DNA from: Deltaproteobacteria bacterium
Lineage (GTDB): Bacteria; Desulfobacterota; Binatia; Binatales; Binataceae
Assembly (NCBI GenBank): GCA_003135135.1
Contig: PLDK01000003.1
Span: 1,492 to 65,491 of the forward strand
Direction: 5' to 3'
DNA: 64,000 bases
The translations under genes and the position numbers were made by a program. Of the stretch, positions 5,936 through 33,580 are shown piece after piece. Under the pieces are notes generated by a model. It saw only the letters and a program-made list of their open reading frames with translations, did not search any database and was not told the DNA's origin. Position 1 is the first letter of the stretch. The number at the start of each line of letters is the position of its first letter.

Positions 5936-6373
5936 ATGCTCGCGAAAGAGAAACGGTTTGCCATCCGGTCAATCGCTGTCGGAATAGTTGCCACTGGACT
6001 AGTTGCAGGCTTCTGTACATGGCAAGTGCAGCGAGCTGACGCTCGGCTCGAAGCGCTGCGGCACATCCCAACAGACGAGGAACTGAGACCGGTGCCAACA
6101 GCGCTCTCAACCCCGAAGGTTTTGCATGATCGCGATTTCGTTCCTGAGGCCGACCTGCCGAAACCAACAGGACACTGGGAGACTCTAGAAGGCGCGACCG
6201 TCGATCCCGACTTAGTTGAAGCTGAAACACAAGCAAATCAAGCTCACGATAGTCGCCTTTTTCTCAGCCTTCTGACCCTCGCCGTTTTTTCCCTGCCGCT
6301 TGTATGGTATTTGCTGCTTGACCGAATTCGTGAAATCAGCGCGGCAGTCTCAGGGCGGGACAAATCAAACTAA
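5936..6373 (+). CDS. Hypothetical membrane protein (N- and C-terminal TM helices)
   Basis: ORF with two hydrophobic segments. Confidence 0.4.
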   Translation: MLAKEKRFAIRSIAVGIVATGLVAGFCTWQVQRADARLEALRHIPTDEELRPVPTALSTPKVLHDRDFVPEADLPKPTGHWETLEGATVDPDLVEAETQANQAHDSRLFLSLLTLAVFSLPLVWYLLLDRIREISAAVSGRDKSN

Positions 6374-6528
6374 GACCTTGTTCGTCCAGTAGTTTGACTT
6401 AGTGCCTCGCGCGCGTTCGCACCTTGGCCCGCGGCCATGTTCGCCAAATCGAACTGTGCCCGCTGCACCGCGGCATCGCCATCGAGTGCGCGCGAGCGTG
6501 AAATCAGGCACCAGCTCCGCTTAATAGT

Positions 6529-7014
6529 TCAATTCAATAAGGCGCGGAGCTGCGCCAGCGCGGATAGGCAAGTCAGATCGCCGGGCGCGAATGCGAGTGC
6601 GCCTTCGAATTCGTCGATCGCCCGTTTCACCATTCCCTTGGCAGCGTAGATTCGGCCCAGGTTCATGAACGGATAATGACGCGGATCGTAACGCGGCGCG
6701 GTCTTGGCTTTTTCGAGCCACGGGACGGCCTCGTCGAGCTCGCCCTTGGCGATTAGATATGCGCCGATGTCGTTGTACGGATTGCCAAAGGCGGGATCGA
6801 TTTCGATGGCGCACCGACACTGGGCGATCGCGTCGTCGATTCGTCCCATCCCTTCGAACGCCCATCCCCGAAATGTGTAGGCCTCGGCGGTCGGAAAGAC
6901 TTCAATCGATTTTGTGTAGAGCTCGACCGCGCGTTCGAGATCGTGGTTCATGTGAAAGCGCATCGCCTCGTTCCATAACTCAAGCGCACGCATCCGCGGT
7001 TCCGCGTCAGCCAT
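6529..7014 (-). CDS. TPR-repeat protein (TadD-like position at the end of the tad operon)
   Basis: Multiple TPR-like 34-aa repeats (AxxYxxxG patterns), directly downstream of tadC on the same strand. The likely start is at MADAEP. Confidence 0.65.
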   Translation of the reverse strand: MADAEPRMRALELWNEAMRFHMNHDLERAVELYTKSIEVFPTAEAYTFRGWAFEGMGRIDDAIAQCRCAIEIDPAFGNPYNDIGAYLIAKGELDEAVPWLEKAKTAPRYDPRHYPFMNLGRIYAAKGMVKRAIDEFEGALAFAPGDLTCLSALAQLRALLN

Positions 7015-7058
7015 GATCGATCGGTTATTGTGCCGGCGCGGGCGCGTCAAGAGCGTTG

Positions 7059-8006
7059 CTACGGCTTGGGAACCGAGGTAAGGGCACGCATGATCTGAAT
7101 CATGGCGGGGCCGACGATCACGCTCATCATGGCGGGCAAAATGAACAGCACGAGCGGGAAGAGAATCTTGACCGTGGTTTTTGCCGCGGCTTCTTCAGCG
7201 CGCAGGCGGCGGGTGGAGCGCATCGAGTCCGAGATGGATCGGAGCGCGGGACCGATTGACGCGCCCAGCCTTTCGCTCTGCACCATAGTCGCGGCCAGCG
7301 GTTTGATGTCGTCGACGGCGGTGCGATCGGCGAAACTTTTCAGCGCCTGGCCAAGCGAATTGCCGGAGGCGAGCTCGGCTGACACGATCGACAGCTCGGC
7401 GCCTATTTCCTGATTTTGGCGCTGGGTTTCGGAACCGACGACCTTGATGGCTTCGCTGAGGCCGAGGCCGGCTTCGACGCAGACCACCAGCAAATCCAAA
7501 ACGTCGGAAAGTTGGCTGGCGATCAACTGCTGACGGTTTTTGGCCTTGCGGCCGACATAGTAGCCGGGTGCGAATGCGCCGACGCCCAGGCCCATCAACA
7601 TGAACATCAGCGGCTTGACGCCGTAGAAGCCGAATGCGATCGCGACGACGAGCGCGAGGAGCGCAGTACCGGCCGTCGATGAGAGGCGGGTGAAGTGAAA
7701 GATGCGTACGGCGCGGGACCCGGGAAAGCCGGCGCGAACCAGGGTCTGTGCGAGCTTCTCGCGCTCCGGAGTATTCGGCGCGGGTTCGGGAAGATGCTTG
7801 GCGACCCATCGAAACAGCGACCGGGTATAGGAATCGGAATCCATGTCGATATTGGCGGGATTTCCATAGGCGACGCGCATCTTGACGCCGATCTCGGTGA
7901 TGCGCTCGTCGAAGGGGCGATTGATCCCGTAGATGGCCGCGTAGATCGCGATGGAGATCGCGCCGAACAGGAAAAATACCGTCAAGCTCGCATAGATAGC
8001 CGGCAT
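7059..8006 (-). CDS. tadC: Flp pilus assembly protein TadC (T2SSF-domain inner-membrane platform protein)
   Basis: T2SSF-like domain with 3-4 TM segments, paired with the upstream TadB paralogue in tad-locus order. Confidence 0.8.
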   Translation of the reverse strand: MPAIYASLTVFFLFGAISIAIYAAIYGINRPFDERITEIGVKMRVAYGNPANIDMDSDSYTRSLFRWVAKHLPEPAPNTPEREKLAQTLVRAGFPGSRAVRIFHFTRLSSTAGTALLALVVAIAFGFYGVKPLMFMLMGLGVGAFAPGYYVGRKAKNRQQLIASQLSDVLDLLVVCVEAGLGLSEAIKVVGSETQRQNQEIGAELSIVSAELASGNSLGQALKSFADRTAVDDIKPLAATMVQSERLGASIGPALRSISDSMRSTRRLRAEEAAAKTTVKILFPLVLFILPAMMSVIVGPAMIQIMRALTSVPKP

Positions 8007-8016
8007 CGCAGTTACT

Positions 8017-8976
8017 TCAGTACTTCACCTTCAGGAGCTTGCGAATTGAGAGGAACGCCAGGGCGTCGAGCACGCAGGCAACTTCGAGAATCTTTTGGCC
8101 GGACGGATCGTAAAAGAGCGTGTTGGTGTAGCTTGGCTGGATGATACTGAACGCACCCAGCATCACGATCGGCAGGAAGCCGACCAGTATCCCGCTCATC
8201 CTGGATTGGGCCGTAAGCGCCTTGATTTGCTGTTGCAGACGCTGGCGGGTGCGAACGATTTCCGAGAGCCGTCCGATTATTATTGCCAGCGAACTGCCGA
8301 CTTCCGCCTGGACCCGGACCGCGACGACCAGCAGGCGGAGGTCATCCTGGGGCACGCGCTTGAGCATCTCTTCGAGCGCGCGGGGCAGCGGCAGCCCGAG
8401 CCGGCTCTGTTCGATAGCGGAGCGGAATTCGGTGGAGATCGGATCGGCGAACTCGGCCACCACGACTTGCAATCCGCGCAGCAGCGTATGGCCGGCTTCG
8501 AGTGACGATTTGATCAAATCGAGCGCGTACGGCAGTTGCTTGGCGAATGCCTTGAGGCGCCGCTGCCTGCGCAGCCGGATATAAATTATCGGCAGGCTTG
8601 CCATCGCCGCGCCCATCGCGATCGACAGGAGTTCCAACCCCCAAATCGCCTCGCCGGCGATCAGGCCGGCCGTGAACATCACCAGGATCACGAGCAGTAC
8701 GTCGACGATGCGGGCGTAGATTCCGGCCTGCCAGAGGTTTTCCTCGAGTTTTTGGAGCAGATTGAGCCGATAGAACCAGCTTAGAAATTCGCGTCCGGTA
8801 AGGCGGCGACGATCGGTCTTGGTGATGTCGTCGGCCAGGGCGACATTGGGCCGCGACATCCGGCGCATCACGGTGCGCGTGACGCGGGGCCGATTGGGCC
8901 GCATGAACAGCATCGCGCAGGCAATCAGCACGAGGCCCGCGGCCGCAGCCGGAATCAACAGGTCGCCGAGGTTCAT
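8017..8976 (-). CDS. tadB: Flp pilus assembly protein TadB (T2SSF-domain platform protein)
   Basis: T2SSF-family membrane protein. It has a 4-nt overlap with the cpaF stop. Confidence 0.8.
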
Positions 8977-10355
8977 CGCGCGGCCATTTTGATCACGTTC
9001 GATTCGGCCTTGTATCCGGCCGTTTCGAGGCGCTGTGCGTATGCTGAACGAATGCCGGTCGATTGAAAGGCGCCGTTGATTTTTCCCGTCGCGGTGGTGT
9101 CAGCGCGGACAAACTCGAACAAATCCTGCATCATGATCATCTCGCCTTCCATGCCGCTGATCTCGGAAATCCTCATGACTTTGCGCGAGCCGTCGGAGAG
9201 CCGGCTGACGTGAACGATAATGTTGACGGCAGAGGCAATCTGCTGGCGCATCGCGCGCTGCGGAATCGAGACGCCTGACAGCAGCATCATCATCTCGAGC
9301 CGGCCCAGGCATTCGCGAGGACTGTTGGCGTGGATGGTGGCGATAGAACCGTCATGGCCGGTGGACATCGCCTGCAACATGTCGAAGACTTCTGCGCCGC
9401 GGACCTCGCCGACGACGATTCTGTCCGGGCGCATGCGCAGACAGTTCTTGACCAGGTCGCGCTGCGTGACCTCGCCGCGGCCTTCAAGATTCGACGGCCG
9501 CGTCTCGAGCCGCACGACGTGGGGCTGCTGCAAGGAAAGCTCGGCAGAATCCTCGATCGTAACGATTCGCTCGTCCTCGGGAACGAACGCGGACAGACAA
9601 TTGAGCATCGTGGTTTTGCCCGAGCCGGTACCGCCGCAAACGATTACGTTGAGGCGCGCTCGAACAACCGCGAGCAGAAACTCGACCAGGTCCCAGGTGA
9701 GAGCGTCTTTTTCGACCAGCGCGCCGATGTCGAAGCGATGCTTGCCGAAACGCCGGATCGATAGCGCCGGCCCGTCGAGCGCCAGCGGCGGGATGATCGC
9801 GTTGATACGCGAGCCGTCAGGCAACCGCGCATCAACCATCGGCGACGATTCGTCGACGCGCCGTCCGACGCGAGACACGATCCGATCGATGATCAGCATC
9901 AGATGCTGGTCGTCCTGGAAGACGACGTCGGTGGCGTGCAGCTTGCCGCGCTTTTCGACGTAAACCTGGTCGTGGCCGTTGACGAGAATGTCGGTGATTT
10001 CGTCGTCACGGAGCAAGGGCTCGAGGGGACCCAGGCCGAGCAACTCGTTCTTAAGTTCCTCGATGAGCCGGCCGCGGTCGATGTCGGTCAGGAGGCGGCC
10101 ATCTTCATTAAGAATGTCATTGATAGCGTCGGTGACCTTGACGGAGACCATCGCGGGCTCGAGGGTCTCGAGCTTGGACACGTCGATAGTCTCGAACAAT
10201 TTGTTGTGAACTTTGACCTTCAAGCGGCGCGAGCTATCCGCGATCGCATCCTTGCGCCGGCGCACGGTCGCGCCGATAAGCGAGCCGCCGCCGGTAGTGG
10301 CCTCTGGCGGTCGTCCGCCCCTGGTGGCATTCGACAGCCTGTCTGTCAGTCCCAT
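8973..10355 (-). CDS. cpaF: CpaF/TadA secretion ATPase (VirB11/PilB superfamily)
   Basis: Walker [10 protein letters not shown], Asp box, and His box HANSPRE. The ORF extends to 10442, but the start with GAGG RBS at 10355 avoids overlap with cpaE. Confidence 0.9.
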
Positions 10356-22547: not shown

Positions 22548-23804
22548 TCACGACGAGTCCCGCTCCTCAAACTGTTCGTCGGAGGGTTTGACGGCGCGGA
22601 ACTGAATCAGCAATGCGATGTCGTAAATTGTTTTGAGCGCGCCCGCGCAAATCAGCGGCCATCCAAACGACGAATGATTCAGCATCGCGCCCGCCGGCAA
22701 TGGCGCCAGCGCCGCCGCCAGGCTGCGCGGCACATTGGTCACTGTCGCCGCGGCCGCGCGCTCCTCGGGCGGCACCACCGCCATCACATACGACTGGCGC
22801 GCGGGAACGTCCATCTGAGAGGTCGAAAAGCGCAGCAGCAGAAATGCCATCGCCAGCCCCGGGGTCGGCATCAACGCCGCGATGATCAGCATGGCGTTCG
22901 ACGGCAGATGGCTGAACACCATCGTGTTGATTCGGCCGAACCGCGCCGCAAGCGCCGACGAAATAAACTGTGAAAACGAGCTAAGCAGTCCGGCCGCGAA
23001 AAAAAACGTGCCCGCCACTTGAACTGAGAGGTTGAAGCGGCGAAACAGCCACAGCGCCAGCAGTGACTGAATTACGAATCCGCCGCCGAGCGAGTCGAGA
23101 CTGAACAGCGCCGAAAGCCGCAGCACGATTGCCCGCGACTTCGCCAGCGGCGCGGACTTGGCGGGCTGGCGCTCGACTTCGATGGCCGGGGAGAGACGCC
23201 GATAAACCGCGAACGCAATCACCGCGATGATCGAGTATGCGACGAAGCCCGACCGCAGCGCCGGCGCGAGCGCCCATCCATGGCGCGCCGCGAGTATCGC
23301 CGGCACGCCACTGGCCAGCGCGCCAAACGCACCAGCCGTCGCGCCCGCAACGTTGTACAGCGCGAACATCGCGGTCAGATCGCCAGGCTCTGCGGCCTCG
23401 GCCAACGCCGCCTGCTCGACGGGCAGAAACAGGCTGACGTCGCCGGCCGATGGATTCAGCGTGCCGACGACCGCCACCACGAACAGCAGCCAGAAGCTCT
23501 CCGTGGTGGCGAATCCTATTCCCGTCGCCAGCATCAGCGCGCACGCCGCAAGCAGGACTCGACGCCGGCCCAGCCGATCGGTGGCCAGCCCCACCCATAG
23601 CGTTAACGCCGCCGAACCCAGCAGCGTGCCAAACACGATTGCGCCGACGCGGAGCGGATTGAAGCCGATCGCGGTCAGGTAGCTTGGCAACAATATGCTG
23701 ACTGCCCCGTCGGCAAGGCCGCGCAGCGCGCGTGTCGCCAGCAGCAGCTTGGCGTCAGTCGTAGCGCTGCGCGGGAACCATCGACTGATCGGACTCACCA
23801 TCAT
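22548..23804 (-). CDS. MFS transporter (12 TM)
   Basis: Hydrophobicity pattern and an MFS loop motif (G..DR.GRR). Confidence 0.8.
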   Translation of the reverse strand: MMVSPISRWFPRSATTDAKLLLATRALRGLADGAVSILLPSYLTAIGFNPLRVGAIVFGTLLGSAALTLWVGLATDRLGRRRVLLAACALMLATGIGFATTESFWLLFVVAVVGTLNPSAGDVSLFLPVEQAALAEAAEPGDLTAMFALYNVAGATAGAFGALASGVPAILAARHGWALAPALRSGFVAYSIIAVIAFAVYRRLSPAIEVERQPAKSAPLAKSRAIVLRLSALFSLDSLGGGFVIQSLLALWLFRRFNLSVQVAGTFFFAAGLLSSFSQFISSALAARFGRINTMVFSHLPSNAMLIIAALMPTPGLAMAFLLLRFSTSQMDVPARQSYVMAVVPPEERAAAATVTNVPRSLAAALAPLPAGAMLNHSSFGWPLICAGALKTIYDIALLIQFRAVKPSDEQFEERDSS

Positions 23805-24004
23805 CTGGCCAAAACCTAACCCCTAACCCCTTCCCAATCTGGGAAGAGGAACAGTCGCATTGAGATGGTCTATAAGGCGCGCGCCGCCGAGGGAAGCCAA
23901 TAGCATAACGCTCTGTTCGCCGATCCGCTCGTTGTGGCATACTCTTGGCCTCTGCGCGTGTTTTTGAGGAGCAATCGTCCACGGCCATTCGAAGGGAAAG
24001 CTCG

Positions 24005-24289
24005 ATGCGCGTCGAAATCAGCGATGGCGTCATATGGCGGGATCTCGGCGGCGACGTGGTCATCTTGAACGTCGAAACGGGCGTCTACTTCGGCCTCGAC
24101 GGCTCGGGTGGCCAGATATGGCGCGAACTCGTCGAACACGGTTCCATTGAGAAAACCTTCGCCTCGCTAAAGCAGCAGTTCGACGTCGAACCCGATGAGC
24201 TACGCCGCGACCTCGACGCTCTCATGAATCAACTTGTCGAAAAGAGACTCGTGCATCTGATCGCCGAACCTAAAGGTCGTTTGCGATGA
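24005..24289 (+). CDS. PqqD-family RiPP recognition element (lasso peptide B1 protein)
   Basis: About 94 aa, PqqD-like (ILNVETGVYFGLDGSGGQIWRELVE... ). It lies directly upstream of the Asn-synthetase-like cyclase. The ORF extends to 23945, but the RBS-supported start is 24005. Confidence 0.8.
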   Translation: MRVEISDGVIWRDLGGDVVILNVETGVYFGLDGSGGQIWRELVEHGSIEKTFASLKQQFDVEPDELRRDLDALMNQLVEKRLVHLIAEPKGRLR

Positions 24290-24335
24290 CGCCAAGGCTG
24301 GAGGCATCGGGCCGTCACCCCGGCGCTTCGATCTA

Positions 24336-26288
24336 ATGAGCGGCATCGCGGTCCTCTATCAATGGGACGGAGCTCCAGCGGACCGCTCGACTGTCGAGCG
24401 GATGATTGATGTCATCCCGTACCGCTCGGTTGACGGCTTCGGCGTATGGGGCAACGGCCCGGTCGCGATTGGGCATGCAAAGCTCCAGACGACGCCCGAA
24501 GCTTCGGCTGAGACCAGCCCGTTCGTGGACGAAACCAGCAGGCTCGTTCTATCGATGGACGGGCGGGTGGATAACCGCGACGAACTCACGGCGGAGTTGA
24601 ATTCGCATGGTCATCGTGTTCGCACGGGCACGGACGCCGAGATCGTGCTGCGCGCCTGGCAGTGCTGGGGTACCGAGGCGCCTGCGAGAGTCATAGGCGA
24701 TTTCGCGTTCGCCTTATGGGACCCATCGAAGCGGACGCTCTTCTGTGCCCGGGATCCTTTGGGAGTAAAAAGCTTCTACTACTTCAATGGCCCAGGATTC
24801 TTTCTGTGCGCCTCGGAGCTTCATCAACTGTTCCAGGATCCAAGGGTCGTACGAAGGCCGAACGAGCCTGCTATAGCCGAGATGCTGGTGAGGCTCCCGG
24901 TAGACCGCGAGGAGACACTCTTCGAAGGTGTCAGCCGCCTCGAGCCGGCGCATTATCTGAGCGTGAGCGCGCGTGGCGTGGAACGTCGGCGCTACTACGA
25001 TCTGGACGCCTCACGGGAGATTATCTATCGGAGCGACGACGAATACTCCGATCATTTTCTCTCGCTGTTCAAGGAGGTGATGCGATGCCACCTTCGCAGC
25101 AACAAGGGAGTCGCCTCGGACCTGAGTGGCGGGCTTGATTCATCATCGATTGTCTGTTTGACAGAACAACTACGCCACGACGGCGAAGTGCAACTTCCTA
25201 GTTTTGAAAGCTTCACGGTTCCCTTCGAGACCGGACCCGCAGCCGAGACTGAGTACGTCGAAGAGGTCTTACATAAGTATCCTCATCGCCATACCTATCT
25301 TCCTCCAGGAATGGCCCCGCTCGGCCAGCTCACTGCCCAGGTTGCGCACTATCTGGACTTTCCGGATTTTCCCAACTCTGGATGCACCGATTACACGCCG
25401 ATTCTTGGCAATCGTAACGACCTGAGAGTTCGGCTGACCGGACTGGGCGGCGACGAGTGGTTTTCCGGAACATACTTAGTATATGCAGACCTGGTCAGGC
25501 AGCTTCGCATGATGGCGCTGTTGCGCAGGCTGCGGATTGATCGAAATCCACCGGTCGGATTCGCGCCCTTTCCGGGCTATGCCAGGACCCTTTGGCGGTA
25601 TGGCGTTTTGCCCCTCGTGCCCGACGGCCTTAAGTCGGCGCTCAGGCCATGGCTGCGTCGTCCGCCTGAGCTTCACCCGCTGGTCGTGCCCGCGTTCGCG
25701 GCCAGGACGAAACTTTTGGAGCGCCTGTCCACGAGGCGGCCGTTGCCCCGGAGCCGCAGCTTCGCACAGCAGGATCTGTTCAGGTACTACTTTTCCGGAT
25801 TGCTCTCGTACTCCCTTGAGATGGATGCACGGTGGACCGCGGGCTTTCGACTGGAGGCACGGCATCCTTTCCTGGACCGCCGCATACTCGAGTTTGCCTT
25901 CGCCATACCTGATAACCAACGATTCAGGCCCGGCGTCAGCAAGTTCGTGTTGCGCAATTCGATGCGTGGAATCCTGCCGGAGCGGGTACGGCTGCGGTAT
26001 GATAAGACTCACCTGACAGAGTTATACCCAATGGCGCTAATCGCGCTCGGCGGCGAGCGGCTGTTCGATCGCCTCAACGTCGTCAAAAACGGATGGGTCG
26101 ACGGAGTCGTTGTGCGCAGGCTTTACCGCTCGATGGCTGAGGCGTTTTCTCGCCGCGATCCCTCTTACGCAGAGAATGTCTTCGAACTGTGGAACATCTT
26201 TGCGCTCGAACTCTGGCTCAACGTGGTGTTTCTCGGTATCAGTGAGCCTTTCAAGCACGTGGCCGAAACCACAGAAGCGGCTTGGTGA
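24336..26288 (+). CDS. Asparagine synthetase B homologue: lasso peptide cyclase (C protein)
   Basis: N-terminal Ntn-glutaminase-like domain in which the catalytic Cys2 is replaced by Ser (MSGIA...), as in lasso cyclases, followed by an AsnB adenylation domain (SGGLDSS PP-loop). Length is 650 aa. Confidence 0.85.
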   Translation: MSGIAVLYQWDGAPADRSTVERMIDVIPYRSVDGFGVWGNGPVAIGHAKLQTTPEASAETSPFVDETSRLVLSMDGRVDNRDELTAELNSHGHRVRTGTDAEIVLRAWQCWGTEAPARVIGDFAFALWDPSKRTLFCARDPLGVKSFYYFNGPGFFLCASELHQLFQDPRVVRRPNEPAIAEMLVRLPVDREETLFEGVSRLEPAHYLSVSARGVERRRYYDLDASREIIYRSDDEYSDHFLSLFKEVMRCHLRSNKGVASDLSGGLDSSSIVCLTEQLRHDGEVQLPSFESFTVPFETGPAAETEYVEEVLHKYPHRHTYLPPGMAPLGQLTAQVAHYLDFPDFPNSGCTDYTPILGNRNDLRVRLTGLGGDEWFSGTYLVYADLVRQLRMMALLRRLRIDRNPPVGFAPFPGYARTLWRYGVLPLVPDGLKSALRPWLRRPPELHPLVVPAFAARTKLLERLSTRRPLPRSRSFAQQDLFRYYFSGLLSYSLEMDARWTAGFRLEARHPFLDRRILEFAFAIPDNQRFRPGVSKFVLRNSMRGILPERVRLRYDKTHLTELYPMALIALGGERLFDRLNVVKNGWVDGVVVRRLYRSMAEAFSRRDPSYAENVFELWNIFALELWLNVVFLGISEPFKHVAETTEAAW

Positions 26289-26364
26289 CCCTCATCGATG
26301 CGCTCTTCAAGCTGTAAACCCTGTCGCAATGCATGGCAGAGCGAACTGAAATGGAACGAGTAAA

Positions 26365-27507
26365 ATGTCTTTGATGCTGGATGAGCATCGCCTGTATCTT
26401 TCCGACCTGAACCGAACCTCATTGTTTCGACGGGCGATCAACGCCGTGGTTAAGCCGGGCGACCTCGTGCTCGACATCGGCTGCGGGACTGGGGTGCTTG
26501 GCCTGCTCGCGATGAAGGCCGGAGCCGCAAGGGTGTACCAGATTGACCAATCGCCCATGATCCAGGTCGCCGGCGACGTGGCATCTGCCAATGGTTACGG
26601 GCAAAGCACGATCGGGATTCACGAACGCTCCGGTCGTGCCAGGCTTCCCGAAAAGGCCGACGTCGTCGTTGCCGATCAGCTGAGCCACTTCGGAATTGGC
26701 GCCGGGATGCCCGAGGTATTCAACGACGCCCGCCGGCGTCTCCTCAAGCCGGGCGCCCGCGCGATCCCTCGACGCATCGAACTCTTCCTCGTCCCGGTGA
26801 ATTTTCCCGAGATGTGGGGCATCGCCGGCTTCTGGGAGAAAAGACATGCCGGGCTGAAGATGTCGCCGGCACGCAGCATTGCATTCAATACCGTTTACCC
26901 CAGCGAGAAGAGCCCGCGTCGGAGGCTGGGCAGACCCGCGCGGATGTTCAGCTTTGACCTTACGGACCTGACGCCGGAACGCTTCTCTGCCAAGGCTGCG
27001 ATCGAGGTTTCAGCGGCCGGCGTTATGCACGGTCTCAGCGGATGGTTCGTTGCCGAACTGGCGCCGGGCGTGATCATGACCAATTCGCCTTTTCGCAAAA
27101 GCCGAATCCAACGATCTGCGGTGTTTTTTCCGGTCGAGAAGCCTTTAGCGTTGAGCAAGGGGGATCGCCTGGATATCACGATGACTGCTATTACCGCGCA
27201 GAATCTCCTTAGCTGGAAGGTGGTGGTCTTCAATACTAAAGGTAGGGAAAAGGCACGATATGTTCATTCCACGCTCAATGGGATGTCGCTCATGCCTGGC
27301 GAATTGGCTAAGACCCGTCCGGACTTTGTGCCACACCTGTCGGATTGGGGCGTGGCGCGAAGGTCAGTGGTCAATCTGGCCGATGGAACACGCACACTGG
27401 CTGAAATAGAAAGGGAATTATTCCGAATTCATTCGGCTCTCTTCCCCTCATTGGCGGATGCAGCGGAATACGTCACCAAGGTTCTCATCGCCGACGCGAA
27501 CCCCTGA
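26365..27507 (+). CDS. Class I SAM-dependent methyltransferase with PRMT-like (protein arginine N-methyltransferase-like) motifs
   Basis: Motif I VLDIGCGTGVLGLLAMKAGAARVY, post-I VVVADQLSHFG (compare PRMT IIISEWMGYxL), about 380 aa with a C-terminal beta-barrel-like region. Confidence 0.7.
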   Translation: MSLMLDEHRLYLSDLNRTSLFRRAINAVVKPGDLVLDIGCGTGVLGLLAMKAGAARVYQIDQSPMIQVAGDVASANGYGQSTIGIHERSGRARLPEKADVVVADQLSHFGIGAGMPEVFNDARRRLLKPGARAIPRRIELFLVPVNFPEMWGIAGFWEKRHAGLKMSPARSIAFNTVYPSEKSPRRRLGRPARMFSFDLTDLTPERFSAKAAIEVSAAGVMHGLSGWFVAELAPGVIMTNSPFRKSRIQRSAVFFPVEKPLALSKGDRLDITMTAITAQNLLSWKVVVFNTKGREKARYVHSTLNGMSLMPGELAKTRPDFVPHLSDWGVARRSVVNLADGTRTLAEIERELFRIHSALFPSLADAAEYVTKVLIADANP

Positions 27508-27615
27508 CCGACTTGACCTTGGTCGTCGTCTTTCATAATCTGAACCCGCGTTTTCGAACCAGGTAGCGCATCCGTATCTTGACCAGCTTCGGCGAATCAG
27601 GAAGGGTTATGCTGC

Positions 27616-27642
27616 TTGTAAGAAGCGCAAGTGTGCTATATA
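27616..27642 (+). promoter_or_regulatory. Candidate sigma-70-type promoter (TTGTAA-N15-TATATA) upstream of the lasso precursor gene
   Basis: Sequence match in the AT-rich intergenic region, about 55 nt upstream of the precursor ATG. Confidence 0.35.
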
Positions 27643-27698
27643 AAGAAACGTGACGTTTTGGTGCGAGGCGAGATGCAATTGGAGTTTGGGGATTGGAG

Positions 27699-27869
27699 AT
27701 GATTAAAAAAATTAAGACAGACGCGCAGAAGCCTCGGACGCAGAGCATCAAGAAACCTTATGTCCGTCCTCACCTCGTAGAGTACGGCAACGTGGCAAAG
27801 CTCACAGCTTCAGGCGGCACGGCTGCATCTGACGGGATATCCGGGCAACGCCAAATTATGATAGGCTAG
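27699..27869 (+). CDS. Lasso peptide precursor (56 aa): MIKKIKTDAQKPRTQSIKKPYVRPHLVEYGNVAKLTA/SGGTAASDGISGQRQIMIG
   Basis: Found by manual translation; it is missing from the ORF track. GGAG RBS at 27695. The leader carries the conserved YxxPxLxxxG-x5-T-x motif (YVRPHLVEYG NVAKL T A). The predicted 19-aa core starts at Ser1 with Asp8 as the macrolactam acceptor. Confidence 0.75.
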   Translation: MIKKIKTDAQKPRTQSIKKPYVRPHLVEYGNVAKLTASGGTAASDGISGQRQIMIG

Positions 27870-27971
27870 CAGACCATCGGACTCCCCACCGAGGTTCTTG
27901 CGAGCTGATTCGCGTGGTCAAAATTACAGCCGGCTGCTACGCTTGGGGAAGAGACCGGGTACAATCCGTCG

Positions 27972-29021
27972 GTGGGGCAAATCGAACGGTCTCAACCGGA
28001 ACTTTTCTGGGCATCGCGCTCCGTCACCGACCTGAGCAAAACGAGAATCCCAGACTTTCATCAGCAAGCCTACGGGCTGCAAATCGTTACAGACCTTCCG
28101 CTTCCGGAGCTTCCGGCACTTCGAGTGTCGTCGGTAGGGTCGGCGGTTCGCGCGACTCTAGGCGGACGCTCTCAGCGCCTCCGCCTCAATCCCCGATGGT
28201 ACCTGCGTTCGCGGCTTCCAGGCGGCAGGATTTGGCTCCGCTGCGGCAAGACTCCGGCTGGTTACGTACTTTCCTTTGCTAACATAGCCGACTTTGTCAT
28301 TGACAGCTCCGGAAGCCAGGTAGTCTGCTGCAACGCGAGCAGCGACGTTAGTCTGGAGACCATCCGTCATCTCCTTATAGACCAGGTGCTCCCGCTGGTT
28401 GTAAACCTGCGCGGCCGGGAGGCCCTGCACGCTACTGCGGTCGCGACGCACAGGGGAGTTTGTGCATTCACGGGACCTGCAGGGTCGGGTAAGTCAACGC
28501 TCGCCGCGAGCTTCGTCCTATCTGGGTATCCGCTGGTCTGCGACGATTGCCTGGCGCTTTCCGAAGGCAAAGCGTTTATGGCGCTTCCCGGTTATCCGGG
28601 TTTGCGGCTGTGGCGCGATTCGATCCGGGCGCTTGGCGCAAGTTCACGGAATCTGAAGCCGGTCGCGCACTATACGACAAAATCGCGCTTAAAAAACCAC
28701 TCCCGACGCGCCGACTTCTGCTCGACAACACGCCGGCTCGCGCGCATCTATCTGCTCGAGCGCGCGCGATCGAGCAAACACTCAGCCCGCGTCGCGATCC
28801 AGGAGCTCGCTCCCGGCGAGGCGCTGATGGGGCTGGTCAAGGCGGCCTATAGGCTCGACATCACCGACCGTGCGATGCTGACGCGTCAGTTCCAGTTCCT
28901 CTCCCGCGTTGCCGAGCGCGTTCCGGTCAAACGTCTCATCGTGCCCAATGAATTTTCCGCACTCGCCGAGGTAAGAGCGGCGGTGCTGCACGACTTGAGC
29001 CACCGTCGGCCGCCCCGTTGA
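27972..29021 (+). CDS. HPr kinase/phosphorylase-like protein: putative lasso-peptide tailoring kinase
   Basis: HprK C-terminal domain signature LHATAV...GVCAFTGPAGSGKSTLAASFVLSGYPLVCDD (compare HprK GxSGxGKSE...ADD). Confidence 0.75.
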   Translation: MGQIERSQPELFWASRSVTDLSKTRIPDFHQQAYGLQIVTDLPLPELPALRVSSVGSAVRATLGGRSQRLRLNPRWYLRSRLPGGRIWLRCGKTPAGYVLSFANIADFVIDSSGSQVVCCNASSDVSLETIRHLLIDQVLPLVVNLRGREALHATAVATHRGVCAFTGPAGSGKSTLAASFVLSGYPLVCDDCLALSEGKAFMALPGYPGLRLWRDSIRALGASSRNLKPVAHYTTKSRLKNHSRRADFCSTTRRLARIYLLERARSSKHSARVAIQELAPGEALMGLVKAAYRLDITDRAMLTRQFQFLSRVAERVPVKRLIVPNEFSALAEVRAAVLHDLSHRRPPR

Positions 29022-29133
29022 GCGCTATACCAAGGCGATAGATGTCTCAGAAACGCGAAGCTCCGCGGGTCGCAGGACCCGCGGAGCCATCGCACAAACG
29101 ATCAAGACCTAAGCCTTAAATTCTCCATCCCGA

Positions 29134-30129
29134 TCAGAACGGAGTCAGCGGAATGCAGGCGGGACTCAACACGCCGTCGGCATCGGCCGTGCCATAGTCG
29201 TTGGTGACCCAGTGGTTGCCTCCGCACGTGCTGCTCGCGTCGTGGAGATCGTGACCGCTTGTAACACCATTGCCCGATGCGCTTATGAGGTAAACCTGAT
29301 CCATGTTGGTCGATTCACTTGCGTCCAGGAAAATTCCGTCACCGTTGTTGCCAGTGACCGCAGCTGAACCAGCGGTAGCACCTTCGGGCGCATCGCCCAC
29401 CTTAACCTCGGAATTGGAGCCGCAACCCCATGTGCAGCCTACGTGCACGCCAGCGCCACCGTTACCGGTAGCGGTGAACACGCTGATCCTCGGTCCGTCC
29501 GAGCCGGTTACGAGCACTCCATCGGCGCCGTTGCCTGAAGCGCTGAAGTCTGAAATGCCGCACTCATCACCGCAGTTATATATGTAAATACCCTGCTTGC
29601 TATTCGCCGTGGAATCAACATTGGTCCATATTTCCGTCGTGCTCTCGCCAGTGCCGTTCATCTCCAGCCCGACTCCGTTGTCGGTCGTGACGATCGCATC
29701 GCCTGCAGTATTACCTCCCTTATCCAACACACCCACTGCAAACCCCGAGATTACGCTGCCACCGCCTTCGATCACGTCCTCATTGGCTGAGCTTTCGACG
29801 AAGATTCCGTCCCCTGTCGAGGTCCCCGTCCCAGTGTACGTGATGCTGTAACCCTGGAGACTAAGGGTGTTGTCGTGGCCACCGAGAGTGAGGCAGGTGT
29901 TGCCGGCGACAGTCTCGGTGAGGTTATTCTGTACCAGATAGATCGTGTTGTTAGCCGTGTACGACCCGCACGTGGTGATACCCATGGGATCTACGGCGTT
30001 CGCAGACGCATGAGCCTTCTTGGCCCAAGCGGCCTGCGGGCCAGTCAGGACAAGCGCGGCCGTCAAAGCAAGAAAAGATACGCCAGGAGCGCCTATACTT
30101 TGAAAAAACCCTCGTTTGATTGCCTTCAT
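29134..30129 (-). CDS. Secreted parallel beta-helix repeat protein (Gly/Asn/Thr-rich, GNG/GDG repeats)
   Basis: Signal peptide followed by low-complexity repeats typical of right-handed beta-helix proteins. Confidence 0.55.
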   Translation of the reverse strand: MKAIKRGFFQSIGAPGVSFLALTAALVLTGPQAAWAKKAHASANAVDPMGITTCGSYTANNTIYLVQNNLTETVAGNTCLTLGGHDNTLSLQGYSITYTGTGTSTGDGIFVESSANEDVIEGGGSVISGFAVGVLDKGGNTAGDAIVTTDNGVGLEMNGTGESTTEIWTNVDSTANSKQGIYIYNCGDECGISDFSASGNGADGVLVTGSDGPRISVFTATGNGGAGVHVGCTWGCGSNSEVKVGDAPEGATAGSAAVTGNNGDGIFLDASESTNMDQVYLISASGNGVTSGHDLHDASSTCGGNHWVTNDYGTADADGVLSPACIPLTPF

Positions 30130-30380
30130 ATCGTTTATGCTCCTTCGCCTTTCTTTCGTTTTCTGTGTGGCGACACCATTAATAAGCGGCTCTTGGCAAC
30201 TCTTGTTCTTGGACGTTTGCTCACGACGTGCCGAGGTAGATTTAGCAATGGTTTAGATCGACGGCGAATCATTTCATTTTGCCTCCCTTGAGTCAAGCGG
30301 TTCTATGACGCCCATTGACGGCTTTGCTATTCGATTTTAGTCGTTAGAAGTCGTAGATTAGGCTCAGCGACGTAAATCTC

Positions 30381-30549
30381 TACAAGTTGTTATCCTGTTG
30401 CCCACAAAACGAAAGCCGGTGTCGCCGATAGATACACTTGCAAAGCGCAGTCGCTGGCCGCTTTCAGTCTACAATTTGTCATCCGGTTGTTATGCTCTTG
30501 CGGACGAGAAGGAAACGGCTGTCACCGATCGATACACTTGCAAGGCGCA
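30381..30549 (+). repeat. Tandem direct repeat (about 69 + 80 nt copies, roughly 85% identical). It overlaps the start of the nucleotidyltransferase gene.
   Basis: Copy 1 is 30381-30449, copy 2 is 30470-30549. Both encode the peptide [KR]KR.[VL]SPIDTLA[KR]R, but in different frames. Confidence 0.7.
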
Positions 30550-31802
30550 CTTGGTCCCAGCTCGCGCCTGGGGCTATTGTTGACAACTCTGTGGAATTCG
30601 ACGCCCTCCTCGACCTTGCCGGCTTGTCCATCGAAGCGGCGCTCGTGCTGTGCTGCGCGACAACTGCGGCCACGCCCGTGCGCACGGAACTGGCGGCCGA
30701 CCTTGCGCCGCGCGTGCGCAGTTGGGACCGCGTCGTCGATATCGCCAAACGTCATGCGGTGCTCCCGTTAGTACATCGCTATCTGAAACTCGAATGTCCG
30801 ACCGCGGTTCCGGGAGAGGGGCTTGCGAAGCTGCGGACGCAGTGGCAGCTGATCATTCTCTACAACCGTCATCTGACCGCCGAACTTGTGCGCCTGATGG
30901 GCCTGCTGAAAGCGGCTGGAGTTCCGGCTGTCACCTTCAAGGGTCCGGTACTTGCCGCGATGGCATACGGATCGATCGAACTTCGCCAGTTCAGCGATCT
31001 GGATATTCTCGTGCGTCAGACTGACCTGCCCCGGGTCGCCGAAATACTCACCGCCGAACGATATTTGTCGCCACATACCAGGCGCGAAGGTCTCGCCACC
31101 GGCTACTTTCAGGAGTACGAGGACGCCTTCGTCGGACCCGACGGGCTGGGCGCCGTGGACGTTCATTGGAACCTCACGCCGCGGTCGTTCCGTTTCGCCC
31201 CCGACGAGGAAGGCCTGTGGCGGCGCGCGCACGAGGTCGATCTGGAGTTCGGCAAAGCGATGGCGATCGCGCCCGACGACCTGTTGCTGTACATCTGCGT
31301 TCACGCCACGAAGCATGGATGGGTCACGCTCGGATCGATCTGCGATGTCGCCGAGACCGTTCGCGCGCGTCCGGAAATCGATCTGATGAGGATACTCGAC
31401 GAGGCAACCTCACTCGGGAGCCGGCGGATGTTCCTGACCGGCATCTGCCTGGCGCACGAGCTGGTCGGCGCGCCGATTCCCGCCGATCTTGTCACGATAG
31501 CTCGCGACGACCGCGCCGCCCGGGCATTGGCAGGACGCGTGGCGGGGCAACTGTTCAGCGGAGCCACGCAGGGACGGGCAGACTTCGATCCGTGGGCGGT
31601 TCCGATCCGCTCGATCGAGGGCGCACGCGCGCGAATGCGCTACATCGTCCGCCGAATGCTGGCGCCGACGATGGGCGACTACGAACTCATCCCGCTGCCA
31701 GCAGCGCTCTTTCCGCTCTACTGGGTGATTCGGCCGTTTCGGATGGCAGTGCAATACGGGCCGCGGCTGGTCCGCGGCTCTTCGACCAGTTCGAACGCGT
31801 GA
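30492..31802 (+). CDS. Uncharacterised nucleotidyltransferase-family protein (PF14907-like), a type often linked to kinase-containing lasso clusters
   Basis: About 436 aa, with the architecture and motifs (GS...DLDILV) of the 'uncharacterised nucleotidyltransferase' family. The start is taken at MLLRT (30492) inside repeat copy 2; the ORF track start is 30438. Confidence 0.55.
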   Translation: MLLRTRRKRLSPIDTLARRTWSQLAPGAIVDNSVEFDALLDLAGLSIEAALVLCCATTAATPVRTELAADLAPRVRSWDRVVDIAKRHAVLPLVHRYLKLECPTAVPGEGLAKLRTQWQLIILYNRHLTAELVRLMGLLKAAGVPAVTFKGPVLAAMAYGSIELRQFSDLDILVRQTDLPRVAEILTAERYLSPHTRREGLATGYFQEYEDAFVGPDGLGAVDVHWNLTPRSFRFAPDEEGLWRRAHEVDLEFGKAMAIAPDDLLLYICVHATKHGWVTLGSICDVAETVRARPEIDLMRILDEATSLGSRRMFLTGICLAHELVGAPIPADLVTIARDDRAARALAGRVAGQLFSGATQGRADFDPWAVPIRSIEGARARMRYIVRRMLAPTMGDYELIPLPAALFPLYWVIRPFRMAVQYGPRLVRGSSTSSNA

Positions 31803-31835
31803 GCAGTCTCAATTTTTGATTTTTTAGTGGATTTT

Positions 31836-31911
31836 TGGTGAGCCGGCCGGGACTTGAACCCGGGACCCTGTGATTAAAAGTCACATGCTCTACCGCCTGA
31901 GCTACCGGCTC
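31836..31911 (-). tRNA. tRNA-Lys (anticodon UUU), 76 nt with encoded CCA
   Basis: Manual cloverleaf: acceptor GAGCCGG/CCGGCTC, D-arm GCTC..GAGC, anticodon stem TGTGA/TCACA with loop CTTTTAA, T-arm CCGGG TTCAAGT CCCGG. Confidence 0.85.
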
Positions 31912-32356
31912 GCCCGAGAGGTTTCAATGCTTACAGGTAATTCGAAGCATTGGGAATAGTCGCGACTTCCGAAGTCGGTTCCGCAACTCCGCCCCGCTCT
32001 GATTTCAACTACGCATGTGCCGCGAAAGCTCTATTATTAGATAGTTAAATTAGCTCAAAGCGCGGCGTAGCGTTACCAGAAGAGCGACCGAGATGAGGGC
32101 GGTGAAGGCGCGGGGTTATGTCATTTTCTATCAAATTTTCTAGCCAGCGCCGTCATGGTTGCACCGCGCTCATCACGGTGAAAAGCGCAATGACTAAACA
32201 CAAGTTGACTAGCTTTTGCCCAAATTCGGCAATTTCTGCGCTGACCATCTTGACAGGCTAGCCCCTACTAGAATATATCCAAACCCTACAAATTAGTAGA
32301 GCAGGTTTAGGAAATAAGCGGAAGTTAGAAGAGTCAGCGCTCGAGGGGAACTGAAG

Positions 32357-33580
32357 ATGCGCCTACATGAGTACTCGGCGAAAGGATCGCCGGTCGCGAC
32401 TGCGAGGCAGAATCTTGGCGCCCAGCCGGCGGACGCAACGTCCGAGTGGTTGAGCCTGGCGGATCTTGCGCACGGGTCGGAACGGATTGGCGGGGCGGTG
32501 GTGCGGTCGGCGCACGCGCGCAAAATACTCAAAACCATTTCACGCTTGAGTCCGTACAAGGCAACGGTCCTGATTCACGGCGAATCCGGAACCGGGAAGG
32601 AACTGGTCGCGCGCGCGCTGCATACGATGGGCTCGGCGCCAAACGGTCCGTTCGTGACCTTCAATTGCTCCAACCTGGTCGAGTCGCTGGCAGAGTCGCA
32701 GCTTTTCGGTCATGTGCGCGGCGCATTCACCGATGCCCGCGAGGATTCGCTCGGCTATTTTCGCTCCGCCAACGGCGGAACTCTATTTCTGGACGAAGTC
32801 GGCGAGCTTCCGCTGCGCCTGCAGCCCAAGCTGCTGCGCGCGCTCGATACCCACGAGATTCAGCCGGTCGGTTCTTCACGCACCTACTCGGTTGATATTC
32901 GGCTGGTCGCGGCAAGCAATCGCGACCTGCACGCGATGGTCAAGGCGGGGCAATTCCGCGACGACCTCTACTACCGCCTTAACGCGGCGGCAATCCTGGT
33001 TCCGCCGCTTCGCGAGCGGCGCGAGGCAATCCCGGCCTTCATCGCTCATTTTATCGAGCACTTCAACCGCCTGTTCGGCAAAGATATAAAGCTCGTTTCG
33101 CGGATCGCCTTGGACGCACTGTACGCCGACCCGTGGCCCGGCAACGTCCGCGAGCTCAGCCATGCAATCGAGAGCGCGGTGCTGATGACCGAAAACGATC
33201 GTATCGATCTCGACGACCTGCCTTTGCGCCACCACGATGCGAATCCGGAAGTGGTGGGCGAGTCGGTCGAGAAGGTGCTGCAAAACGGCGGGCTCAATCT
33301 CGACGGCGGGCCCAATGGCGACGGGATTGACTGCGAGAAGGCGTCGAAGCGGTGCTTCGAAATGGCGAGCTGGCCCTACTCGCTCGACGCGGTAATCCGC
33401 GAGGCCTCGAAAGTCGCGCTGGTTCGCGCGCTGGAAGCGACCGAGGGCAATTGCCATCGCGCGGCCGAGTTGCTGGGCGTATCGCGCTACACGGTTTACC
33501 GAATGCTGAACCGGTATGGCCTGGGCGAAGGCCATACCTACAGGACGCTGCGCAAGTCGACTGTACGCCGCGCGTCTTGA
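32357..33580 (+). CDS. Sigma-54-dependent transcriptional activator (AAA+ plus HTH) with no receiver domain; paralogue of 4131-5291
   Basis: GESGTGKELVARALH, GAFTDA, and a C-terminal HTH (RAAELLGVSRYTVYRML). The N-terminus is short. Confidence 0.9.
   Translation: MRLHEYSAKGSPVATARQNLGAQPADATSEWLSLADLAHGSERIGGAVVRSAHARKILKTISRLSPYKATVLIHGESGTGKELVARALHTMGSAPNGPFVTFNCSNLVESLAESQLFGHVRGAFTDAREDSLGYFRSANGGTLFLDEVGELPLRLQPKLLRALDTHEIQPVGSSRTYSVDIRLVAASNRDLHAMVKAGQFRDDLYYRLNAAAILVPPLRERREAIPAFIAHFIEHFNRLFGKDIKLVSRIALDALYADPWPGNVRELSHAIESAVLMTENDRIDLDDLPLRHHDANPEVVGESVEKVLQNGGLNLDGGPNGDGIDCEKASKRCFEMASWPYSLDAVIREASKVALVRALEATEGNCHRAAELLGVSRYTVYRMLNRYGLGEGHTYRTLRKSTVRRAS

Follow-up and report, generated by a model that had tools for sequence, protein, structure and literature searches.

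Gene content of the lasso-peptide cluster

Positions 24005–31802 of the 64-kb stretch of contig PLDK01000003.1 analysed here (the whole stretch is called the window below) hold a lasso-peptide cluster of a Binataceae/Candidatus Binatus bacterium in which the gene for the leader peptidase B2 is absent. The nearest loci in reference genomes belong to metagenome-assembled genomes (MAGs) of Binatus and Binataceae, with cyclase identities of 81–90%. In the metagenome collection the window corresponds to the JGI contig Ga0334857_000083.

Table 1. Features of the lasso-peptide cluster and its immediate surroundings (positions of the window).
Feature	Position	Strand	Matches
Candidate sigma-54 promoter (-24/-12), TGGCATACTCTTGGCC, 55 bp upstream of B1	23935..23950	+	pattern match
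B1, PqqD-type recognition element (leader-binding chaperone) of peptides that are ribosomally synthesised and modified after translation (RiPPs)	24005..24289	+	Pfam PqqD 1.5e-16
C, lasso macrolactam cyclase, Asn-synthase-like with GATase-like N-domain	24336..26288	+	Pfam Asn_synthase 5.5e-38, GATase_7 8.6e-29
MT, PRMT/PrmA-like S-adenosylmethionine methyltransferase	26365..27507	+	Pfam PrmA 2.6e-11, PRMT_C 2e-7
A, precursor peptide, 56 residues; leader MIKKIKTDAQKPRTQSIKKPYVRPHLVEYGNVAKLTA, core SGGTAASDGISGQRQIMIG	27699..27869	+	
K, HprK-related precursor kinase (P-loop)	27972..29021	+	NCBIfam HprK_rel_A 1.8e-9
BH, beta-rich, probably secreted, beta-helix-like protein	29134..30129	-	weak Beta_helix and para_beta_helix matches
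N, PF14907 nucleotidyltransferase-fold tailoring enzyme (PsmN/BsfN-like)	30438..31802	+	Pfam NTP_transf_5 2.2e-56
tRNA-Lys	31836-31911		
Sigma-54-dependent activator, just downstream of the cluster	32357..33580	+	Pfam Sigma54_activat 6.4e-63, HTH_8 7e-9

Only the PqqD half of the B function is present, as an earlier note on this DNA had described. Besides its Pfam match, B1 is recognised by the NCBIfam model lasso_PqqD_Bac (1.3e-14, under the curated cut-off of that model), and its orthologues have the same start, MRVEISDG. The cyclase is 650 residues long and reaches 435 bits with the NCBIfam model lass_lactam_cya (3.5e-130), which is below the cut-off of 525 bits. The precursor gene was missed by the JGI gene caller and is not mentioned in the earlier note; its orthologues occupy the identical position in relatives. 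The leader follows the pattern YxxPxLx3Gx5Tx, with Tyr(-17) and Thr(-2), and ends in KKPYVRPHLVEYGNVAKLTA immediately before the core SGGTAASDGISGQRQIMIG. The junction between PYVRPHLVEYGNVAKLTA and SGGTAASDG, with Ser1 and Asp8 in the core, is that of a lasso precursor, in which Gly, Ala, Ser or Cys is expected at core position 1 and Asp or Glu at positions 7–9, and weak NCBIfam matches to lasso_cyano and lasso_leader_L3 were also obtained.

The kinase carries exactly the motif H-x14-GxxGxGKS-x15-DD (HATAVATHRGVCAFTGPAGSGKSTLAASFVLSGYPLVCDD) that has been reported for the lasso precursor kinase BsfK (PMC10368454), and N carries a DxD motif (FSDLDIL), as does PsmN, a protein with a tailoring function in which this motif was mutated (PMC6993621). 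These two motifs assign the cluster, on sequence grounds, to the kinase/nucleotidyltransferase (paeninodin-like) type with an added methyltransferase. The latter is a putative tailoring enzyme and was found in 28 related loci, both with and without B2. The beta-helix-like protein has a signal-like N-terminus, read from the sequence as ending in AWA before KK, with six conserved Cys and no conserved His; it adjoins K in 16 loci, B2-containing and B2-less alike, and is not a protease candidate. An MFS gene adjoins the cluster on the opposite strand. The family hidden Markov model (HMM) for the ABC exporter found no match in the 64-kb window; the exporter gene (D) is frequent, but not universal, in lasso clusters.

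Absence of the leader peptidase B2

Lasso clusters are recognised, and rated as complete, where B (or the pair of B1 and B2) lies together with C; B2 is a transglutaminase-like Cys protease. The earlier note had reported that no B2 lies in or beside the cluster, and five kinds of search bore this out. Pfam searches found no PF13471 in the individual open reading frames (ORFs) at E ≤ 0.1, and none in the six stop-masked frames of positions 23600–32001 at E ≤ 1. A local HMM was built from 45 B2 proteins encoded beside homologous cyclases, which were confirmed as PF13471 by Pfam (3e-20 to 6e-25) and matched lasso_biosyn_B2 of NCBIfam (2.7e-22; the B2 family is also NF033537). Run without filters (--max) over every stop-to-stop segment of the window, this model gave a best E value of 2.7. 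With nine Binataceae B2 proteins as queries, tblastn gave scattered matches in the window, the best of them at an E value of 0.033. Finally, hhalign comparison of the B2 profile with those of B1, C, MT, K, BH and N yielded no probability above 1.3%, against 100% in the B2-versus-B2 control. The intergenic gaps on the coding strand do not exceed about 300–460 bp, and therefore leave no space for an uncalled gene. B2 is thus confirmed to be absent from the window; the six-frame Pfam and hhalign searches revealed neither a B2 in an alternative frame nor one fused inside a cluster protein, the two hiding places that the earlier note had pointed out. No S24/S26 peptidase was matched in any frame of 23600–32001.

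Three explanations for the missing protease had been offered in the earlier note, none of them preferred: that it is encoded elsewhere, that the beta-helix or the PF14907 protein substitutes for it, or that the cluster is non-functional or degenerate. According to our analysis, the first is the best supported, and the evidence presented below speaks against the second and the third.

Integrity of the B2-less cluster

The lack of both an essential canonical gene and the exporter, in a cluster whose 5' edge is a rearrangement hot spot, might be taken as the mark of a decaying remnant that has lost B2 and no longer makes its product. However, each of the seven cluster ORFs is intact, and conservation extends to the leader and core motifs as well as to the catalytic motifs of K and N. 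The ratios of nonsynonymous to synonymous substitution rates (dN/dS), computed between the B2-less genomes (the window and the loci designated L001, L019 and L008), were 0.21–0.55 for B1, 0.26–0.31 for C, 0.20–0.24 for MT, 0.16–0.31 for the precursor, 0.22–0.25 for K and 0.23–0.31 for N. They are comparable to those of the flanking MaoC and MFS genes (0.13–0.23), and the species compared reach a dS of about 0.5. The only relaxed gene is the fast-evolving BH (0.56–0.83). Thr(-2) is a known recognition residue of B2, and the leader, including this residue, is conserved in loci with and without B2.

Six syntenic loci (the window, L001, L013, L008, L003 and L019) share one junction between the MFS gene and B1, and a block of about 100 bp lying upstream of B1 is conserved among them. 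Their lack of B2 has therefore been inherited through several speciations and is not a recent accident; it persists in at least six species-level lineages. In L019 a 3.2-kb insertion with other ORFs (6323–9670) lies between the MFS gene and B1, within the shared junction. The cluster is not decaying and is under purifying selection, and the degenerate remnant is, in our judgement, the most improbable of the readings considered.

B2 in related clusters

Of the 48 homologous loci flanked on both sides by 6 kb or more of sequence, 31 had B2 according to the local HMM and 17 had none nearby. Within the clade of the window, B2 occurs in at least three arrangements. L007 and L012 have the order B2-B1-C. 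In L006 and L010 an inverted cassette of B1' and B2 replaces the 5' part of the original B1, of which a 3' remnant of about 130–150 bp, recognisably of the window type, is left downstream of B2 (at about 9850–10000); L002 has the same inverted cassette without a remnant. In L011, a window-type cluster, B2 lies about 7 kb downstream and adjoins N. In view of these varied arrangements, B2 is a mobile element at the edges of these clusters. Two further arrangements were observed. The metagenome contig L086 has B1' (on the minus strand), B2 (on the plus strand), an intact B1, C and MT all together. L031 (1–16595) is a tandem super-cluster that has, in this order, a B1, a 644-residue ORF without a Pfam match and a B2-C'-A'-K'-N'-ABC set; directly downstream of this set lies a window-type B1-C-MT-A-BH module with no K or N of its own.

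Comparison with the B2-containing relatives also bears on the idea that a protein of the cluster itself stands in for B2, be it BH, the PF14907 protein, the kinase's N-terminal part or the Ntn-like N-domain of the cyclase. The cyclase begins with MS[GA]I (24336–24350 in the window), and this start is nearly invariant in about 80 homologues (L001–L079); its Ser sits where asparagine synthetase B, a class II amidotransferase, has its Cys nucleophile. Such invariance is unexpected for a domain that the literature calls catalytically inactive. Together with the finding that PsmC and PsmA suffice for pseudomycoidin production (PMC6993621), and the fact that single-sequence searches of the PDB returned nothing for BH and N, it gives some ground for an in-cluster substitute. 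Against this, B2-containing clusters possess BH, N, K, MT and the MS[GA]I start no less than B2-less ones do (the first four, for example, in the sister clusters L002, L006, L007, L012, L011 and L014), and none of the five tracks the absence of B2. The profile searches on the beta-helix and PF14907 products that the earlier note had proposed gave no likeness to B2, in line with the hhalign probabilities above. BH has a signal-like N-terminus and no conserved His, whereas K and N have the complete kinase and PsmN-type DxD motifs that tailoring enzymes would have. We therefore regard an in-cluster substitute as highly improbable.

Some narrower candidates were tried and rejected. A protease activity of the cyclase Ntn domain was discarded because the whole family has the MS[GA]I start, whatever the B2 status. 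An enrichment test for a gene family tied to the absence of B2 returned only phylogenetic hitch-hikers (an antisense ORF inside K, the BH gene and syntenic flanking genes). The existence of two B1 subtypes, one serving B2 and one serving C, was likewise rejected, as the B1 tree intermixes the B1 of the window with those of the B2-containing L007 and L012. The B1 of the window is orthologous to the B1 of B2-containing relatives, with no relaxed conservation.

A remote PqqD-B2-ABC module

A scan of metagenomes with the B2 alignment, which also returned B2 genes embedded in clusters, revealed a recurrent triplet of PqqD, B2 and ABC exporter genes (L138, L150, L154, L157 and L160, with several partial copies). 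No cyclase, kinase or precursor was found in the flanks of the triplet (L157 was examined over ±10 kb). The B2 of this module is 62–69% identical to that of L011, its PqqD (B1a) and ABC proteins have their best labelled matches in L014, and the B2 of L014 is the second-best match after that of L011; overall, the proteins of the module are most like those of Binataceae loci. The G+C content of the module is 0.60–0.62, its tetranucleotide correlation with the window is 0.97–0.99, and RefSeq members of its protein clusters are annotated as 'lasso peptide biosynthesis B2 protein [Candidatus Binatus sp.]'.

Carriers of the module were traced by a protein database search with the B2 of L157, followed by look-up of the encoding contigs. 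The copy P0001 lies at about 79 kb on contig_15392 (2,045,318 bp), and the B2-less cluster L003 lies at about 696 kb on the same contig, i.e. about 617 kb away. The copy P0135 is located on JBEKFG010000019.1, and the B2-less locus L001 (NZ_JBEKFG010000003.1) belongs to another contig of the same MAG, Candidatus Binatus sp. SPRUCE 224, whose full-length cyclase is 88% identical to that of the window. Hence two genomes with the same B2-less cluster have a PqqD-B2-ABC module at a remote locus, as the earlier note's suggestion of a protease encoded elsewhere would have it. Further copies (P0002, P0003, P0007 and P0013) were found, none in an assembly tied to a B2-less locus.

The site of the module is constant, in a housekeeping context near nadE in Candidatus Binatus/Binataceae genomes, with the gene order of two short ORFs, PqqD, B2, ABC and an ORF of about 230 residues. 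In the populations nearest to the window the two short ORFs encode 261 and 175 residues. The module is under purifying selection, with omega values of 0.27–0.39 for B2 and 0.16–0.23 for the exporter. In the B2 tree, the orphan B2 proteins form a clade sister to the one that includes the embedded B2 of L011, with the B2 of L014 as the next branch. Taken together, the orphan B1a-B2-ABC set and the B1b-C-MT-A-K-N set of the window amount to the gene content of the complete L014 cluster.

Relation of the module to the population of the window

Several lines of evidence connect the window with one copy of the module, P0121, which is 95% identical to the P0135 of L001's MAG. P0121 (Ga0395986_000010, 248 kb) and the exact MaoC protein of the window (Ga0395986_000057, 125 kb) were found together in the JGI sample 3300036645, and each of them also occurs in Stordalen Mire (WOOD18) data. 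P0121, the exact window cyclase and the window MaoC protein are indexed in similar numbers of collection blocks (67, 66 and 64, respectively), with similar size profiles of the carrying contigs. Divergence is comparable as well: relative to L001's MAG, dS is 0.04–0.15 for the P0121 locus and 0.06–0.11 for N and the flanking genes of the window, and relative to the genome of L003 it is 0.28–0.37 and about 0.20–0.6, respectively. The tetranucleotide correlation of these loci with the window (0.985–0.988) equals that between the window's own two halves. From this circumstantial evidence we infer that the genome of the window carries the remote module too.

In the P0121 population (L188–L190, 13400–20444) toxin-antitoxin genes and a set of genes for conjugative type IV secretion (VirB8, CagX, TrbI, TraD and a relaxase) come after the module, so that an integrated mobile element appears to abut it; in other populations a DsbA-like gene occupies that position.

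A probable split lasso-peptide pathway

The most satisfactory explanation, which we consider likely, is a lasso pathway split between two loci. The window would represent the cyclase half, with the precursor, B1, C and the tailoring enzymes K, N and MT, while the distant conserved site near nadE would hold B2 jointly with B1a, a second PqqD chaperone, and with the ABC exporter (D). The exporter absent from the cluster accompanies B2 at the remote site, which suggests that the two loci are one functional unit. By analogy with the characterised paeninodin-type systems, the following order of steps may be proposed. B1 would bind the YxxPxL leader and deliver the precursor to K and possibly also to MT and C. 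K would phosphorylate a Ser or Thr of the core, possibly the Ser/Thr at core position 4, and N would decorate the phosphate. The remote B2, aided by a PqqD protein, would then act on the precursor of the window by cutting after Thr(-2)-Ala(-1), whereupon C would join Ser1 to Asp8 and the remote ABC pump would export the product.

The main rival, less likely in our view, is that B2 is dispensable: a housekeeping protease of the cell would cut the leader-core junction, and B1 would be kept for the kinase, the methyltransferase and the cyclase. Precedents for this exist, since psmCAD alone yielded correctly cleaved and cyclised pseudomycoidin in two hosts, E. coli and B. subtilis, and a cyanobacterial cluster without B genes was noted by the same authors (PMC6993621). 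In the bsf system B1 speeds the kinase (PMC10368454), which would explain why B1 is kept in the absence of B2, and the 17 of 48 homologous loci without a nearby B2 would also fit. However, two genomes with the same cluster retain an intact B2 under selection elsewhere, Thr(-2) is strictly kept, and the missing exporter travels with the remote B2. B2-independent leader removal therefore appears unlikely, and the split pathway is preferred.

Some points weigh against the split pathway. The genome of the window is read over 64 kb, and its circumstantial link to P0121 consists of one shared metagenome and of matching prevalence, divergence and composition. A precursor whose leader was identical at 14 of 19 residues was left uncut by PsmB1/B2 (PMC6993621), and cross-recognition by the remote B2 is therefore not to be assumed. 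Binataceae carry several paralogous lasso clusters, and a different cyclase locus of the same genome could be the one that the remote module serves. The B2-less status of loci from other or distant phyla was called with the local HMM only. In addition, the MAG of L003 has many frameshift-split genes, which makes the integrity of its cluster less certain; among the split genes of this assembly (L003/L161, contig_15392) are housekeeping transporters as well as K and N of the cluster, and the splits are probably long-read frameshift errors rather than pseudogenisation.

A broader form of the split pathway, towards which we lean with some reserve, is a stable division into a nadE-linked 'hub' of PqqD, B2 and ABC and one or more distant 'spoke' loci. 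Each spoke would have its own chaperone, cyclase, precursor and tailoring enzymes, and a single peptidase-exporter pair would perhaps serve them all. The searchable literature, the coverage of which is incomplete, yielded no account of a remote B2-exporter module in lasso-peptide biosynthesis.

Additional features and possible regulation

The JGI calls in the 27699–29021 stretch (also locus L080) represent the kinase by its last 147 residues only and add a spurious antisense ORF of 90 residues; the JGI start of N is at about 30591. The start codon of K is uncertain, as the family alignment begins around residue 25–30, and in a single-sequence PDB search K gave weak HPr-kinase matches only. A tRNA-Tyr of 89 nt was reported by ARAGORN inside the K ORF (28370–28458, plus strand). 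It was rejected as a false positive, since the K ORF is under purifying selection and Rfam shows no tRNA there at its gathering threshold. BH follows K in every window-type cluster, including those in non-syntenic genomes, and is present in three copies in L011 (14798–18508). A single-sequence AlphaFold model of BH was unusable (predicted local distance difference test score 35.7).

The precursors of L005, L009, L011, L014, L016, L021, L022, L023, L027, L028, L032, L039 and L059 show a pattern in their cores: in clusters with the PRMT-like methyltransferase the C-termini tend to be Met-rich, often ending in -CL, and clusters without it often have cores with basic or Pro/Gly-rich tails. The core of the window ends in -QIMIG. 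This pattern hints that the C-terminal part of the core may be the substrate region of the methyltransferase.

Regulation of the cluster may involve sigma-54. The candidate promoter upstream of B1 is the single match to TGGCAY-N5-TKGCH in the 64 kb, with a chance expectation of 0.33 and at least one match in 26 of 100 shuffled sequences, and it is kept in all six of the syntenic B2-less loci. The product of the gene downstream of the cluster, a bacterial enhancer-binding protein without an obvious sensor domain, is encoded syntenically in L001, L002, L003, L006, L008 and L019 and is a possible regulator. L012 has neither the GG element nor the activator, and L007 lacks the conserved upstream block. 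A scan for sigma-70 promoters and terminators gave fewer matches than the shuffled controls and was uninformative.

Comparison with known systems and implications

The cluster of the window resembles those of paeninodin, pseudomycoidin and Bsf in its YxxPxL leader with Thr(-2), discrete B1, Asn-synthase-like cyclase, HprK-type kinase and PF14907 protein (PMC6993621, PMC10368454). In those clusters, however, B2 and usually an ABC exporter lie alongside, whereas both are missing from the locus of the window, and its close relatives have a separate PqqD-B2-ABC set hundreds of kilobases away. The window also adds the PRMT-like methyltransferase and the beta-rich, probably secreted protein. The phospho-acceptor is a C-terminal Ser in paeninodin and pseudomycoidin and Ser3 in BsfA, while the core of the window ends in Gly instead of Ser, and most window-type cores have a Ser or Thr at position 4.

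The closest complete counterpart is L014 (Binataceae MAG JASHQJ01), with the order B1a-B2-B1b-C-MT-A-K-N-ABC, in which B1b-C-MT-A-K-N agree with the window in both gene families and order; its cyclase is an outgroup to the window-type clade (44% identity). All of these genes are in one locus in L014, whereas the lineage of the window has neither B1a-B2 nor ABC at the cyclase locus.

Lanthipeptides provide a precedent for a RiPP pathway whose final protease is encoded outside the cluster (PMC8960859), albeit in another RiPP class and with other protease families; here the remote gene is no general protease but the canonical, pathway-specific B2, accompanied by its own RiPP recognition element (RRE) and exporter. 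Triculamin-type clusters likewise lack B2 at the lasso locus (10.64898/2026.07.03.736388), but they have a C-terminal follower, a truncated cyclase without the N-domain, no RRE and no B proteins, whereas in the window the leader is canonical, the cyclase has its full length with the GATase-like N-domain, and B1 is present. [quoted passage not shown] It differs in having an SpI-like peptidase and often no cyclase, while the window has a cyclase and no S24/S26 peptidase match in the searched region.

If the split pathway is true, cyclase-centred clusters without B2 need not be broken, and cyclase-less PqqD-B2-ABC triplets need not be orphans; genome-mining tools that demand B2 beside C would miss or mis-score both halves. 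A further question that follows is how one leader can be shared by two different PqqD chaperones. As B1 and B2 were dispensable for pseudomycoidin in heterologous hosts, these bacteria would offer a natural system for asking whether the kinase-type lasso family needs B2 at all, and the operon of the window with a P0121-type module would be a concrete pair for reconstitution.

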